In this document: positions 9,001 to 15,000 of the stretch, piece after piece
Position numbering within the stretch: position 1 is the first letter of the stretch
Layout: every line of letters starts with the position of its first letter
NCBI RefSeq assembly: GCF_054482525.1
Contig: NZ_CM137006.1
Direction: 5' to 3' (one strand)
DNA length: 64,000 nucleotides
Made by a program: the position numbers

Positions 9001-12000
9001 GTCGATGGCGGGTCAAGTATTGGAGCAGGTACAACCTCTGTTTATGTTAATCTCGACCCTGTAATACAACCGGGCCAGAATCTGGTTGTAGACTTGTCTC
9101 AGCATATAAGTTGCTGGAATGATTACGGCGGCTGGTACGACACTGATCATATAAACCTGGTACAAGGCTCAGCTTTCGCAGGCTCTCTACAGTCATATAA
9201 AGGATCGCTGTACTGGAATAATGTGACCTACCCCTTCCCGTTGACGACAAATACTAATGTATTAGATATTGGTGATAAGACACCGATGCCATTACCGTTA
9301 AAACTCTATATTACCCCAGTCGGGGCGGCCGGTGGAGTTGTCATAAAAGCCGGGGAAGTTATTGCCCGTATTCATATGTATAAAATTGCCACGTTAGGAA
9401 GCGGAAATCCGCGTAATTTTACGTGGAATATTATTTCAAATAACAGTGTTGTTATGCCAACAGGCGGCTGCACTGTTGATAGTCGTAATGTCACCGTGAA
9501 TCTCCCGGACTTTCCTGGAAGCGCAGAAATACCCCTTGGCGTATATTGCTCAAGCGAACAAAAGCTCTCATTTTATCTTTCGGGTGCCACCACTGACAGT
9601 GCCCGACAAGTGTTTGCTAACACAGCACCAGATGCAACAAAAGCATCGGGAGTGGGTGTCTCTCTGATGCGTAATGGAAAAATACTGGCTACGGGAGAAA
9701 ACGTCTCCCTGGGGACAGTAAATAAAAGCAAAGTACCTCTGGGTTTAAGCGCAACCTATGGACAAACAGGAAACAAGGTTGCAGCCGGAACAGTTCAGTC
9801 AGTCATTGGTGTCACTTTTATCTATGAATAATTGTGATTTTGACATTAGTCTATGCGTTCCATTCACGAAAATTGTGCGGATAATTATTTTGTGAAGGCT
9901 ATTATCCTACACTTGTAAGAAAATCCGCGCACAATTGAAGCCAGAGTCTTATTTTTTATATTGAAAAACATGTTAATTTAAACACTATGAGAGATGATGC
10001 TTAACTTATCGTATTTATACCATTCTATTATTTAACGATAATAGGTTAAAAATAGATAGAGAGTAGTCCCCTACTCTTATATATCCATATTGACGATAAT
10101 CCCTTTGTATATACTGTGCATCATCGCTATTACAAATCCTAATAATTCATTTCCACACAGGATAAGCAGATGAAGAAAAAAATTGAATCCTACCAGGGAG
10201 CTGCCGGTGGATGGGGTGCTGTTAAATCCGTAGCAAATGCAGTACGTAAGCAGATGGATATACGCCAGGATGTTATTGCCATGTTTGACATGAATAAGCC
10301 AGAGGGCTTTGACTGTCCGGGATGTGCATGGCCAGATCCTAAGCACAGTGCGTCATTCGACATTTGTGAAAACGGCGCAAAAGCAATCGCCTGGGAAGTC
10401 ACGGATAAGCAGGTAAATGCCTCTTTCTTTGCTGAGAATACGGTTCAATCATTACTTACCTGGGGAGATCACGAGCTTGAGGCTGCGGGGCGTCTCACCC
10501 AGCCTTTGAAATATGATGCCGTCAGCGACTGTTACAAGCCATTAAGCTGGCAACAAGCTTTCGACGAAATTGGCGAACGCCTTCAAAGCTATAGTGATCC
10601 CAATCAGGTTGAATTCTATACTTCGGGCCGCACTTCCAATGAAGCTGCCTTTCTTTATCAGCTTTTTGCTCGTGAATACGGGAGCAATAACTTCCCCGAC
10701 TGCTCCAACATGTGCCATGAACCGACCAGTGTGGGTTTGGCAGCGAGTATCGGTGTAGGTAAAGGGACCGTGTTGCTGGAAGACTTTGAGAAATGCGATT
10801 TAGTCATTTGCATTGGGCATAACCCTGGTACAAACCACCCTCGCATGTTGACTTCGTTGCGCGCTTTAGTGAAACGGGGAGCGAAAATGATCGCCATCAA
10901 TCCTCTACAGGAACGTGGCCTGGAGCGATTTACCGCACCGCAAAACCCGTTTGAAATGCTGACGAACTCTGAGACTCAGTTGGCCAGTGCCTACTACAAC
11001 GTGCGCATTGGTGGTGATATGGCGTTGCTCAAGGGGATGATGCGCCTGTTAATTGAGCGCGATGATGCTGCAAGCGCCGCAGGTCGGCCCTCATTGCTGG
11101 ATGACGAATTTATTCAAACGCATACCGTCGGCTTTGACGAGCTACGCCGTGACGTTCTCAATTCCGAGTGGAAAGATATCGAGCGTATTTCTGGACTAAG
11201 TCAGACTCAAATCGCCGAACTGGCTGATGCATATGCCGCTGCCGAACGCACCATTATCTGTTACGGAATGGGGATCACTCAGCACGAACATGGTACCCAG
11301 AATGTACAGCAACTGGTCAATCTGCTGTTGATGAAAGGTAACATTGGCAAGCCTGGTGCGGGTATCTGCCCACTACGAGGTCACTCTAATGTACAGGGCG
11401 ACCGAACCGTCGGTATCACCGAGAAACCGTCTGCAGAGTTTCTGGCTCGCCTGGGTGAGCGCTATGGTTTCACCCCACCTCATGCACCTGGACATGCTGC
11501 AATTGCCAGCATGCAAGCAATATGTACGGGGCAGGCTCGAGCATTGATCTGCATGGGGGGCAACTTTGCACTGGCAATGCCAGATCGGGAAGCGAGCGCT
11601 GTACCGTTAACGCAATTAGATTTGGCGGTACACGTAGCCACTAAGCTTAACCGCTCTCATCTGCTGACCGCACAGCATAGCTATATTCTGCCGGTTCTTG
11701 GGCGTAGCGAGATTGACATGCAAAAAAGCGGTGCGCAGGCGGTAACCGTTGAGGATTCAATGTCGATGATTCATGCCTCGCGTGGCGTGTTAAAACCCGC
11801 CGGTGTAATGCTGAAATCAGAGTGTGCAGTGGTCGCGGGTATCGCGCAGGCGGCACTACCCCAGAGCGTGGTAGCCTGGGAGTATCTGGTGGAAGATTAT
11901 GATCGCATTCGCAATGACATTGAAGCTGTGCTGCCAGAATTCGCCGACTATAACCAGCGCATCCGACATCCTGGAGGTTTTCACCTGATAAACGCAGCTG

Positions 12001-15000
12001 CTGAAAGGCGCTGGAGGACGTCGTCAGGTAAGGCTAATTTCATTACCAGCAAAGGGCTGTTAGAAGATCCCTCTTCAGCGTTTAACAGTAAGCTGGTCAT
12101 GGCGACAGTGCGCAGTCACGATCAGTACAATACGACGATTTATGGTATGGATGATCGCTATCGAGGGGTATTCGGTCAACGAGATGTGGTCTTTATGAGT
12201 GCTAAACAAGCTAAAATTTGCCGTGTGAAAAACGGCGAAAGAGTTAATCTTATTGCGCTCACGCCAGACGGTAAGCGCAGCTCACGCCGCATGGATAGAT
12301 TAAAAGTGGTCATTTACCCTATGGCTGACCGCTCACTGGTGACCTATTTTCCAGAATCGAATCACATGCTAACACTTGATAACCACGATCCATTAAGTGG
12401 CATTCCTGGCTATAAAAGTATTCCGGTTGAATTAGAACCATCAAATTAATTCGCCTCCTCATTTCTTCTGCTGTCATCCGCACAGCAGAAGAATTCCTCA
12501 TTGACCATTGTCGCGCAATTTACTCACATGTGCTAAATTAAACTGCTCGCTATAAGATATATACCTCCGCCTACAGCTGTAAGAAACTCCGCTCAGTACT
12601 GAAGCGCCAATCCTATTTCCTCTTTTCTCCAGCCTGTTATATTAAGCATACTGATTAACGATGCTTAACGTTATTCGCTTAATAAACACATTTGAAATGC
12701 ATGCGACCATAGTGAAAAATAAAATCACGCAAAGAGACAACTATAAAGAGATCATGTTTGTAATTGTGGTTGTCTTATTATTGACACTTACGTTGATAGC
12801 CATTTTTTCGGCGATTGATCAGCTGGGTATTTCAGGAATGGGTCGCATTGCAAGAGATATTACACATTTCATTATCAATAGTTTGCAAGACTGAAAATAA
12901 ACAGCAAATTATAAATATGAGATGTTAAAAATGTATCGATAAAAACTTTATTGTTTTAAGGAGATAAAATGTCGCTCGTTTGTTCTGTTATATTTATTCA
13001 TCATGCCTTCAACGCTAACATTTTAGATAAAGATTACGCCTTCTCTGACGGCGAGATCCTGATGGTAGATAACGCTGTTCGTACGCATTTTGAACCTTAT
13101 GAGCGGCATTTCAAAGAAATCGGATTTAATGAAAACACCATTAAAAAATATCTACAATGCACTAACATTCAGACAGTGACGGTGCCTGTTCCTGCGAAGT
13201 TTTTACGTGCTTCAAATGTACCGACTGGATTGCTTAATGAAATGATTGCTTATCTCAACTCGGAAGAACGCAATCATCATAATTTTTCAGAACTTTTGCT
13301 TTTTTCCTGCCTGTCTATTTTTGCCGCATGCAAAGGTTTCATTACACTATTAACTAACGGTGTGCTATCCGTTTCCGGGAAAGTGAGAAATATTGTCAAT
13401 ATGAAGCTGGCGCACCCATGGAAACTGAAAGATATTTGTGACTGCCTGTACATCAGTGAAAGCCTGCTCAAGAAAAAACTAAAGCAAGAGCAAACGACAT
13501 TCTCACAGATTCTTTTAGATGCCAGAATGCAGCACGCAAAAAATTTGATACGCGTAGAAGGTTCAGTCAATAAAATTGCCGAGCAATGTGGTTATGCCAG
13601 TACATCTTATTTTATTTATGCGTTCCGCAAACATTTCGGCAACAGTCCGAAGAGAGTTTCTAAGGAGTACCGTTGTCAAAGGCACACGGGAATAAATACG
13701 GGCAACACGATGAATGCTTTAGCTATTTGATTATTTGCTAACGAGTAGTCAACCACGCACCCTACGTAAAAATTAAAACGGGGCAGCCATTCCCTGCCCC
13801 GCGTTGTTTTCAGGCGATATATTTTCATGAGATAAATAAGTGACAGCCGTCACATATTTATGCATTTGCATAACTTGTTGCATGATTATTTATGATCTCA
13901 ATTCTGAATTTTGTCAGTAAAATATAATATATTATTAAATATCAATGGATTAGATGTTTATCAGCGAGAAATTACTTAGTAGAACAGAAAGTAATGTCAA
14001 CGCTTTATGGACTGTTATTTCCCTTTTTTTAGCTAAATCTGCTATCTCTTTATGTGACTAACTTCACTTACATCCACTTATTTCTCTTCGTAAAATTACT
14101 TTGGAATTAAGTACAATAAGAAGAGGAACATTTATGAAGTCTGCATTAAAGAAAAGTGTCGTAAGTACCTCGATATCTTTGATACTGGCATCTGGTATGG
14201 CTGCATTTGCTGCTCATGCGGCAGATGATGTAAAGCTGAAAGCAACCAAAACAAACGTTGCTTTCTCAGACTTTACGCCGACTGAATACAGTACCAAGGG
14301 AAAGCCAAATATTATCGTACTGACTATGGATGATCTTGGTTATGGACAACTTCCTTTTGATAAGGAATCTTTTGACCCAAAAACAATGGAAAATCGTGAA
14401 GTTGTCGATACCTACAAAATAGGGATAGATAAAGCCATTGAAGCTGCGCAAAAATCAACGCCGACGCTCCTTTCATTAATGGATGAAGGCGTACGTTTTA
14501 CTAACGGCTATGTGGCGCACGGTGTTTCCGGCCCCTCCCGCGCCGCAATAATGACCGGTCGAGCGCCCGCCCGCTTTGGTGTCTATTCCAATACCGATGC
14601 TCAGGATGGTATTCCGCTAACAGAAACTTTCTTGCCTGAATTATTCCAGAATCATGGTTATTACACTGCAGCAGTAGGTAAATGGCACTTGTCAAAAATC
14701 AGTAATGTGCCGGTACCGGAAGATAAACAAACGCGTGACTATCATGACAACTTCACCACATTTTCTGCGGAAGAATGGCAACCGCAAAACCGTGGCTTTG
14801 ATTACTTTATGGGATTCCACGCTGCAGGAACGGCATATTACAACTCCCCTTCACTGTTCAAAAACCGTGAACGCGTCCCCGCAAAAGGTTATATTAGCGA
14901 TCAGTTAACCGATGAGGCAATTGGCGTTGTTGATCGTGCCAAAACACTTGACCAGCCTTTTATGCTTTACCTGGCTTATAATGCTCCGCATCTGCCAAAT

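Follow-up and report, generated by a model that had tools for sequence, protein, structure and literature searches.

The two 18-bp inverted repeats upstream of ydeP and of safA-ydeO in the 64-kb window, the whole stretch of DNA analysed here, are very probably the EvgA operators of these two units, with the promoter geometry and the 65-aa SafA described below (probability about 0.9). The ydeP-safA-ydeO stretch is the well-studied acid-resistance locus of E. coli, and the observation is correct but ordinary: it is textbook knowledge that acid resistance in E. coli involves EvgA boxes, the EvgA-YdeO-GadE cascade and the SafA connector. Direct regulation by EvgA is taken from published papers; sites, statistics, conservation, orthology, family assignments and start mapping were computed here.

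EvgA-type boxes in the acid-resistance locus

The boxes and the genes around them are as follows.

9904..9921, + strand: EvgA-type box 1, ATCCTACACTTGTAAGAA, upstream of ydeP; pattern match with one mismatch
10170..12449, + strand: ydeP, 759 aa, acid-resistance putative molybdopterin oxidoreductase; ORF and RefSeq annotation
12463..12493, + strand: hairpin 3' of the ydeP stop, a perfect 12-bp stem, TTCTTCTGCTGT-CATCCGC-ACAGCAGAAGAA, forming a 100% complementary inverted repeat
12568..12585, + strand: EvgA-type box 2, CGCCTACAGCTGTAAGAA, upstream of safA-ydeO; pattern match with two mismatches
12697..12894, + strand: safA, 198 nt / 65 aa, small membrane connector from EvgS/EvgA to PhoQ/PhoP; RefSeq annotation
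12969..13730, + strand: ydeO, 253 aa, AraC-family regulator of the acid response, encoded second in the safA-ydeO operon; ORF

At this locus the window matches E. coli PCN033 with 100% identity; the genes are annotated ydeQ/ydeP/safA/ydeO there. The locus is orthologous to K-12 ydeP-safA-ydeO, the two intergenic regions are ~97% identical to those of K-12, and at least 80% of the region is covered in 5315 of 5426 complete E. coli genomes. YdeP and YdeO both score above NCBIfam equivalog cut-offs (1828 bits vs 1473 for NF007406 and 604 bits vs 348 for NF007407, respectively), and ydeO possesses a strong Shine-Dalgarno sequence (AAGGAG; anti-SD duplex -9.2 kcal/mol). The regulatory genes evgAS lie outside the window and have been reported in almost all E. 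coli (PMC5706723). The hairpin 3' of ydeP is terminator-like but lacks a T tract and was not called by a terminator scan; its stem is retained in the diverged Escherichia lineage L003.

The EvgA box consensus, which we take to be the 18-bp inverted repeat TTCYTACA-N2-TGTARGAA, was sought as strings in the literature, and only irrelevant papers were returned. A scan of the 64-kb window with the pattern TTCYTACANNTGTARGAA gave exactly two matches at two or fewer mismatches, box 1 and box 2, where 0.03 were expected, and none of 100 shuffles yielded two matches. Box 1 lies 249-266 nt 5' of the ydeP ATG (10170) and box 2 lies 112-129 nt 5' of the safA ATG (12697), bearing out the original prediction that inverted repeats of the EvgA half-site pattern sit upstream of both units. 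Its span of 9905-12894 begins one base inside box 1, the true start of which is 9904. The promoter-proximal half of both boxes, TGTAAGAA, is perfect; the distal halves agree with its reverse complement at 6/8 (box 1) and 5/8 (box 2) positions and lack the outer TT, having AT and CG, respectively, instead.

The two matches might be due to chance, or might be sites of another LuxR/NarL-family regulator, with EvgA acting elsewhere in the same regions. Each arm has only 8 nt, the repeats are imperfect, and the window scan alone is not significant when three or fewer mismatches are allowed (0.71 expected). A generic inverted-repeat search of both intergenic regions found the terminator-like ydeP hairpin and did not report the boxes, because their arms are too short and imperfect, and the boxes are visible only with the known pattern. 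Against this stand the excess over expectation in the stricter scan, the fact that the two matches fall in just those two intergenic regions for which EvgA dependence is known, in which no further half-site is present, the recurrence of the same pattern at other EvgA-regulated loci, and a box core that is invariant over ~15% divergence while the upstream flanking DNA is scrambled. Chance or a different regulator is thus a very improbable account of the boxes. A second dimer site between box and -35 was also considered, at the palindromes TCAGTACTGA (safA) and CAATTG (ydeP), and this idea was dropped because neither is palindromic in the diverged lineage.

The conservation set comprised 10 E. 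coli genomes and L003, which is ~15% diverged (11 genomes). The core CCTAC(A/G)-N2-TGTAAGAA is unchanged in all 10 E. coli and in L003, box 2 is invariant as GCCTACAG.TGTAAGAA across the 11 genomes, and, apart from one A8G change, the boxes vary only in the spacer and at positions 1-2. When the window is compared with L003, 47% of positions differ upstream of box 1, vs 11% in the box itself and 14% from the box to the start, and 51% differ upstream of box 2, vs 6% within it; third codon positions of ydeP differ at 30%. BLAST alignments of L003 with E. coli genomes all start ~6-7 nt upstream of box 1.

The EvgA operators of K-12 ydeP and safA(b1500)-ydeO were reportedly described by Masuda and Church in 2003 and by Itou et al. 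in 2009. Gene set, gene order, box positions and the core CCTACA-N2-TGTAAGAA are the same in the window, the promoter sequence downstream of the boxes is nearly identical (~97%), and the operators show allelic differences only. Box 1 is AGCCTACACCTGTAAGAA in K-12 (AGCC..CC), whereas the window has ATCC..CT, the commoner form among the 10 E. coli sampled, and box 2 is TGCCTACAGCTGTAAGAA in K-12 (TGCC) and CGCC in the window; the K-12 box alleles are therefore not the commonest ones. The ydeP leader of the window has five extra nt relative to K-12, and its safA leader has an upstream in-frame ATG that K-12 lacks. Elsewhere in K-12, the pattern matches in the emrK/evgA intergenic region, at a perfect site 5' of frc and at two sites 5' of yfdX (4 matches vs 0.35 expected in 24 kb), and the emrK/evgA, frc/yfdW and yfdX promoters have an 18-bp inverted repeat that departs from it at 0-3 positions. 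EvgA-bound inverted repeats have been described upstream of yfdX and of frc/yfdW (yfdWUVE) (PMC3720670), which, with the K-12 matches, indirectly corroborates the consensus. The safA-ydeO promoter region is bound directly by EvgA (PMC9496106), ydeP is under direct EvgA regulation (PMC7174508), and all genes directly regulated by EvgA have an EvgA site (PMC4283999).

Promoter geometry and a duplicated promoter module

Both promoters carry matching elements downstream of the box.

9904..10006, + strand: ydeP copy of a ~103-bp module, containing the box, a spacer, an extended -10 and ~20 nt from the transcript start up to and including GATGCTTAAC
9971..9979, + strand: putative extended -10 of ydeP, TGTTAATTT, ending 8 nt before 9987
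9987, + strand: published ydeP transcript 5' end, at -178 relative to the K-12 ATG (NC_000913.3 position 1586664), mapped onto the window
9987..10169, + strand: 183-nt 5' leader of ydeP, in which 9993-10000 (GAUGAUGC) is predicted to form a helix with 10118-10125 (GCAUCAUC)
12635..12643, + strand: putative extended -10 of safA, TGTTATATT, as far from the box as its ydeP counterpart
12650..12651, + strand: predicted safA-ydeO transcript start, placed by the 83-nt offset between box start and transcript start in ydeP, with a ~47-nt leader

The ydeP 5' leader has been defined as -178 to +10 in a methods statement (PMC11210196), which places the centre of box 1 at -74.5 relative to the leader start. 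As far as was checked, with the literature ydeP start as the position compared, nothing mapped contradicts the predicted boxes: that start is 83 nt 3' of the first base of box 1. The start-site data of Kim 2012 contain no ydeP or safA start. The safA start and a safA box likewise centred at -74.5 are proposed from the paralogy with ydeP, and TGTTAATTT and TGTTATATT are probably the -10 elements, as the motif TGnTAnnTT that they share is invariant in 22/22 promoter copies (11 genomes x 2 paralogues).

A different geometry around real EvgA sites would arise if ydeP were transcribed, for example, from TTGAAG-16-TATATT (9935-9962), which would put the box near -57, or if there were several starts. 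This pair has 9/12 matches in a sigma-70 consensus scan, the -178 leader start rests on the methods statement of one paper, and the safA start is predicted. The scan, however, found no more promoter-like sites than in shuffles (7 vs 5.9), and the pair itself is poorly kept: TATATT becomes TTTATT in L003, losing the key A at position 2, and TCTTTT in the safA paralogue, and TTGAAG becomes TTAACG in HS4. TGnTAnnTT, by contrast, does not vary and lies just upstream of the -178 base. As neither L003 nor the safA paralogue conserves it, TTGAAG-16-TATATT was rejected as the ydeP promoter, and an altered geometry is unlikely overall.

Under the preferred geometry, mildly acidic pH would lead EvgS to phosphorylate EvgA, a NarL-family regulator, and an EvgA dimer would bind each 18-bp box through the distal xxCCTACA and the proximal TGTAAGAA, separated by a 2-bp spacer. 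With the box centre ~74.5 bp upstream of the start, EvgA would activate a sigma-70 promoter combining a poor -35 with an extended -10. One such promoter would drive ydeP via the 183-nt leader, and the other would drive the safA-ydeO operon via the ~47-nt leader. A PhoP-box scan relating to the reported PhoP repression of safA gave 222 matches at three mismatches vs 173 expected, and a weak match at 12652-12668 is uninformative.

The ydeP and safA promoters are paralogous, gapless duplicates of one module. Positions 9904-10006 align without gaps to 12568-12670, the safA copy, and 55/92 positions downstream of the box are identical, vs 25 +/- 4 in shifted-register and shuffle controls. Beyond the box, the other K-12 EvgA-box promoters share only 18-40/92 identities with ydeP or safA, little or nothing over background, vs 53-55/92 between ydeP and safA themselves; emrK (34-40) is the only other promoter with a slightly elevated value. 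The distances from box to ATG in these other promoters also differ from those of ydeP and safA. The cassette would comprise an EvgA box, a 50-bp spacer, an extended -10 and ~20 transcribed nt, and appears to predate the split of E. coli from the ~15%-diverged lineage and to have hardly changed since. That an ancient copying of this ~103-bp cassette, rather than independent gain of sites, wired both adjacent units to EvgA, with a hint of a structured ydeP leader, is a tentative proposal with somewhat less than even odds.

The ydeP leader folds with an MFE of -35.6 kcal/mol (z = -2.37). The invariant start of the transcript is predicted to pair with an invariant block 125 nt downstream, hinting at a structured regulatory leader; both arms of the helix are unchanged in L003 and therefore provide no covariation evidence. 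An Rfam scan of 9500-13300 returned nothing at E up to 1. A 5'-terminal mini-ORF in the leader (AUG AGA GAU GAU GCU UAA) was rejected, as the O157:H7 and SUISSE alleles no longer have its stop (GCTTACC), making a conserved peptide unlikely.

Length and start codon of SafA

The ORF list contains only a 77-aa ATG frame for safA, at 12661..12894, and it was claimed from this that the 65-aa SafA is present and appears in the ORF track only in an N-terminally extended form. Both the RefSeq annotation, 65 aa, and the start of the Pfam match agree with this. SafA scores 147.3 bits vs a cut-off of 27 against PF17073, residues 1-65 align to profile positions 1-65 of 66, and the match begins at residue 13 of the 77-aa ORF, which is the Met at 12697. 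Like the known SafA (PF17073), a small membrane connector that activates PhoQ, the protein has 65 aa, a full-length match and a central hydrophobic segment (FVIVVVLLLTLTLIAIFSAI, residues 21-40), and its gene lies directly 5' of ydeO, at a distance of 74 nt. A SafA-based scan of one genome per species, in which spread across species is under-sampled, found at least one locus.

Window SafA is 89% identical to K-12 SafA and 65% identical to that of L003, and the start is shared by all. Seven substitutions separate it from K-12 SafA (T5I, S21F, A22V, S44G, E47G, L54I and G65D), four of which lie in the C-terminal part, residues 41-65. This part has been described as the PhoQ-contacting region, and the periplasmic C-terminus is known to activate PhoQ in the case of K-12 SafA (papers including PMC9496106 and PMC5706723).

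The additional codons of the longer frame are specific to the haplotype.

12661..12696, + strand: upstream in-frame ATG plus 12 codons, haplotype-specific; the ORF finder reports 77 instead of 65 aa

The 77-aa ORF exists because this haplotype has an in-frame upstream ATG and lacks the in-frame stop of K-12. At the 12661 site K-12 has GATTTT instead of GATGCT, and so no ATG, plus an in-frame TAA. The stop of K-12-type alleles lies 18 nt 5' of the safA start, in L003 the frame is interrupted by a stop and broken by a 7-nt insertion, and the upstream ATG occurs without a stop in 4/10 sampled E. coli.

It is conceivable that SafA in this haplotype is made wholly or partly as 77 aa from 12661, with 12 extra cytoplasmic residues (MLNVIRLINTFE). 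The 12661 ATG is in frame, no stop intervenes, and its position in the predicted transcript would be about +11. Both safA ATGs lack a Shine-Dalgarno sequence (duplexes of -0.6 and +0.4 kcal/mol), the annotated one being no better, and use of 12661 is therefore compatible with the sequence alone. The original GenBank annotation of PCN033 gives the 77-aa form, that exact sequence has been called on 726 contigs, and the haplotype is not rare, with ~693/5426 genomes sharing a 28-mer with it. The extension, however, is absent from K-12-type alleles and from L003 and is variable even within the haplotype (GCTTAAC or GATTAAC; GTT or GTC; CGC, CAT or CGT), whereas the family profile begins at the downstream Met and RefSeq gives 65 aa in every genome inspected. 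The longer product is accordingly improbable, if a little less so than an altered promoter geometry, and SafA is probably 65 aa from 12697 in this haplotype too.

Significance

Everything found here agrees with published biology, and the locus is therefore of low interest and matters little as a discovery. The boxes serve as a clean positive control, showing that real operators can be recovered from raw sequence by a scan. For a minority haplotype, ORF finders and some GenBank annotations list a 77-aa "hypothetical protein" in place of the 65-aa SafA of RefSeq. Should the promoter duplication prove to be unreported, it would make a neat minor case of a regulon growing via promoter copying.

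The ydeP-safA-ydeO locus and its EvgA-type boxes

The region at 9800-13000 is 100% identical to the PCN033 chromosome, and at least 80% of it is covered in 5315 of 5426 complete E. coli genomes, mostly at 95-99% identity. YdeP and YdeO score above their NCBIfam equivalog cut-offs (1828 versus 1473 bits and 604 versus 348 bits, respectively), and Pfam PF17073 matches full-length SafA at 147 bits.

Features of the locus (genes from the RefSeq annotation of PCN033, converted to window coordinates)
9831: end of ydeQ
9904-9921: EvgA-type box 1, ATCCTACACTTGTAAGAA, 1 mismatch to TTCYTACANNTGTARGAA
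9971-9979: putative extended -10 of ydeP, TGTTAATTT, ending 8 nt before 9987
10170-12449: ydeP, in agreement with the ORF list
12463-12493: perfect 12-bp stem hairpin after ydeP, without a T tract
12568-12585: EvgA-type box 2, CGCCTACAGCTGTAAGAA, 2 mismatches to TTCYTACANNTGTARGAA
12635-12643: putative extended -10 of safA, TGTTATATT, at the same offsets as in ydeP
12697-12894: safA, the sole disagreement with the ORF list
12969-13730: ydeO, in agreement with the ORF list

A scan of the 64 kb with the pattern TTCYTACANNTGTARGAA, which is said to be the consensus of Masuda and Church 2003, returned exactly two sites at up to two mismatches, against 0.03 expected, and none of 100 shuffles gave two; at up to three mismatches, the site count in the window is unconvincing on its own. 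The proximal half-site TGTAAGAA (for which TGTCCGAA is the proposed mutant form) is perfect in both boxes and the distal half is xxCCTACA; the repeats are short, and a generic inverted-repeat search did not report them. K-12 has both boxes at positions equal to those of the window, and the 24 kb around K-12 evgAS contain four consensus matches versus 0.35 expected: one lies between emrK and evgA, one, without mismatch, precedes frc (yfdW), and two precede yfdX. EvgA is reported to bind inverted repeats at these places (PMC3720670) and to bind the safA-ydeO promoter region directly (PMC9496106); the ydeP promoter is described as under direct control by EvgA and little else (PMC7174508), and every directly regulated gene is said to carry an EvgA site (PMC4283999). 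The original prediction placed EvgA-pattern inverted repeats upstream of ydeP and of safA-ydeO; the low expected count and the shared positions in K-12 bear this out, and their interpretation as EvgA boxes is supported. The locus, the boxes and SafA all match published E. coli K-12 biology, and the finding is therefore already known.

Promoter geometry, conservation and duplication

The ydeP 5' leader has been taken as -178 to +10 from the ATG (PMC11210196); the -178 base is 1586664 in K-12 and corresponds to 9987 in the window, which would put the centre of box 1 at -74.5. The motif TGnTAnnTT is invariant in 22 of 22 promoter copies and is read as an extended -10. A good -35 element is absent from the ydeP promoter; a poor -35 is expected of activator-dependent promoters. 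By paralogy with the ydeP promoter, the safA transcript would start at about 12650-12651 and have a 47-nt leader.

L003 (NZ_JAATUR010000028.1, 4376-14564) is a locus in a genome labelled E. coli and represents an Escherichia lineage about 15% diverged: when its ydeP-safA-ydeO is compared with the 5426 complete E. coli genomes, identity reaches no more than 85%. Both EvgA boxes are present in L003, SafA is 63 aa and 65% identical, and in place of ydeQRST and ydeN the neighbours are hipA on the upstream side and an ABC transporter on the downstream side. The existence of this locus sits uneasily beside PMC5706723, which describes safA-ydeO as absent outside E. coli. A ydeP promoter proposed by consensus scan, TTGAAG-16-TATATT, was rejected, as it is unconserved in L003 and in the safA paralog.

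Eleven genomes were compared: the window, K-12, eight further E. coli across the identity range, and L003. The core CCTAC(A/G)-N2-TGTAAGAA is unchanged in all 11; elsewhere in the boxes only positions 1-2 and the 2-bp spacer vary, apart from a single A-to-G change that L003 carries.

Divergence between the window and L003 (positions that differ)
Upstream of box 1: 47%
Box 1: 11%
Box 1 to transcript start: 14%
First 19 transcribed nt of ydeP: 0%
ydeP third codon positions: 30%
Upstream of box 2: 51%
Box 2: 6%

BLAST alignments of L003 with E. coli reach just 6-7 nt beyond box 1 on its upstream side, and L003 also has other neighbours, so the conserved unit is bounded upstream by the box. At the ydeP box, K-12 is the odd one out (AGCC, L002 6731-6748), whereas the nine other sampled E. 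coli and L003 have ATCC, which is nearer the consensus; the safA box (L002 4072-4089 in K-12) has CGCC in the window, two other strains and L003, and TGCC in seven.

From the boxes onward, the promoters of ydeP and safA (9904-10006 and 12568-12670) can be aligned gaplessly over about 103 nt, a module that spans the box, the spacer, the extended -10 and the first ~20 transcribed nt. Past the box, the two agree at 55 of 92 positions versus 25 +/- 4 in controls, and the level is equal in K-12 and L003. The two promoters are therefore old duplicates, and the duplication is older than the split of K-12 and L003. The frc, yfdX and evgA-side promoters show background identity, and the emrK-side promoter is slightly raised (34-40/92). 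The emrK-side promoter of K-12 (L004 7514-7549) also carries CTATAAG at the exact offset upstream of the box seen in safA (12550-12585), with slightly raised identity to safA downstream of the box (37-40/92), and a third, half-site-like sequence, TAGTAAGAA, adjoins the emrK/evgA box.

The ydeP leader and neighbouring features

Within the 183-nt ydeP leader (9987-10169), conservation is highest in two complementary blocks, at 9993-10000 and 10118-10125: the 5' block, GAUGAUGC, has a predicted pairing with GCAUCAUC, which lies 125 nt further along. This helix closes the fold that is predicted for the leader (MFE z = -2.37, with 5 of 200 shuffles as good); covariation is unusable here because both blocks are invariant in 11 of 11 genomes. 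CsrA is reported as a non-binder of the ydeP leader (PMC11210196). A transcript from 9987 would open with AUG AGA GAU GAU GCU UAA, a leaderless 5-codon mini-ORF (9987-10004), but a conserved peptide seems unlikely, given that the O157:H7 and SUISSE alleles (GCTTACC) no longer have its stop.

The hairpin after ydeP has an identical stem in L003 (4769-4799), whereas its 7-nt loop reads ACGGATG versus CATCCGC in the window, the reverse complement but for one base, which looks like a hairpin-loop inversion. E. coli GMM076 (NZ_CM183918.1 2561587-2565980) matches in two pieces, with an IS5 transposase between ydeP and safA that could disconnect or rewire the safA-ydeO promoter.

A PhoP-box-like direct repeat without mismatches, TGTTTAGTCGCTGTTTA, is located at 3177-3193, some 275 nt ahead of the gene for the fimA-like major subunit of the yde fimbrial operon, with a one-mismatch copy at 4183-4199 between the major subunit and chaperone genes; window-wide, PhoP-box-like sites with at most one mismatch are not significantly enriched (3 versus 1.28 expected). 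Upstream of the operon, at ~1860-3030 (PCN033 1691371-1692783), RefSeq annotates a truncated hipA retaining only an N-terminal fragment, a pseudogene for an ISNCY transposase and an HTH regulator that is likewise truncated, adjoined by an intact hipB.

The start of SafA

SafA was also said to be visible only as an N-terminally extended ORF, and this proved correct: the ORF finder reports only 12661-12894 (77 aa), versus 65 aa in RefSeq. The 12 extra codons exist because the window haplotype has an ATG (GATGCT) and, with CGC TTA, is without the in-frame stop of K-12 (CGC TAA), where GATTTT provides no ATG. The ATG without the stop is found in 4 of 10 sampled E. coli, the K-12-like form in five and neither in one; a 28-nt word of the window allele is common to ~693 of 5426 genomes, and in L003, which has the ATG, a stop and a 7-nt insertion come after it.

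In the window haplotype, translation may start at 12661: a Shine-Dalgarno sequence is absent at both safA ATGs, the annotated one at 12697 included, and sequence alone therefore allows the upstream start, whereas ydeO has a strong Shine-Dalgarno. The original GenBank record of PCN033 lists a 77-aa hypothetical protein (AKK48196.1), and public collections contain the exact 77-aa and 65-aa sequences in large numbers (on 726 and 667 contigs). RefSeq SafA, however, is 65 aa in every genome inspected, and the Met at 12697 is aligned in all lineages and coincides with the Pfam profile start, so that the comparative evidence favours a SafA of 65 aa. Window and K-12 SafA differ at seven residues, four of them in the C-terminal part contacting PhoQ. 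GATGC, the source of the upstream ATG, is common to the ydeP paralog and L003; it is the ancestral form, and GATTTT in K-12 is therefore derived.
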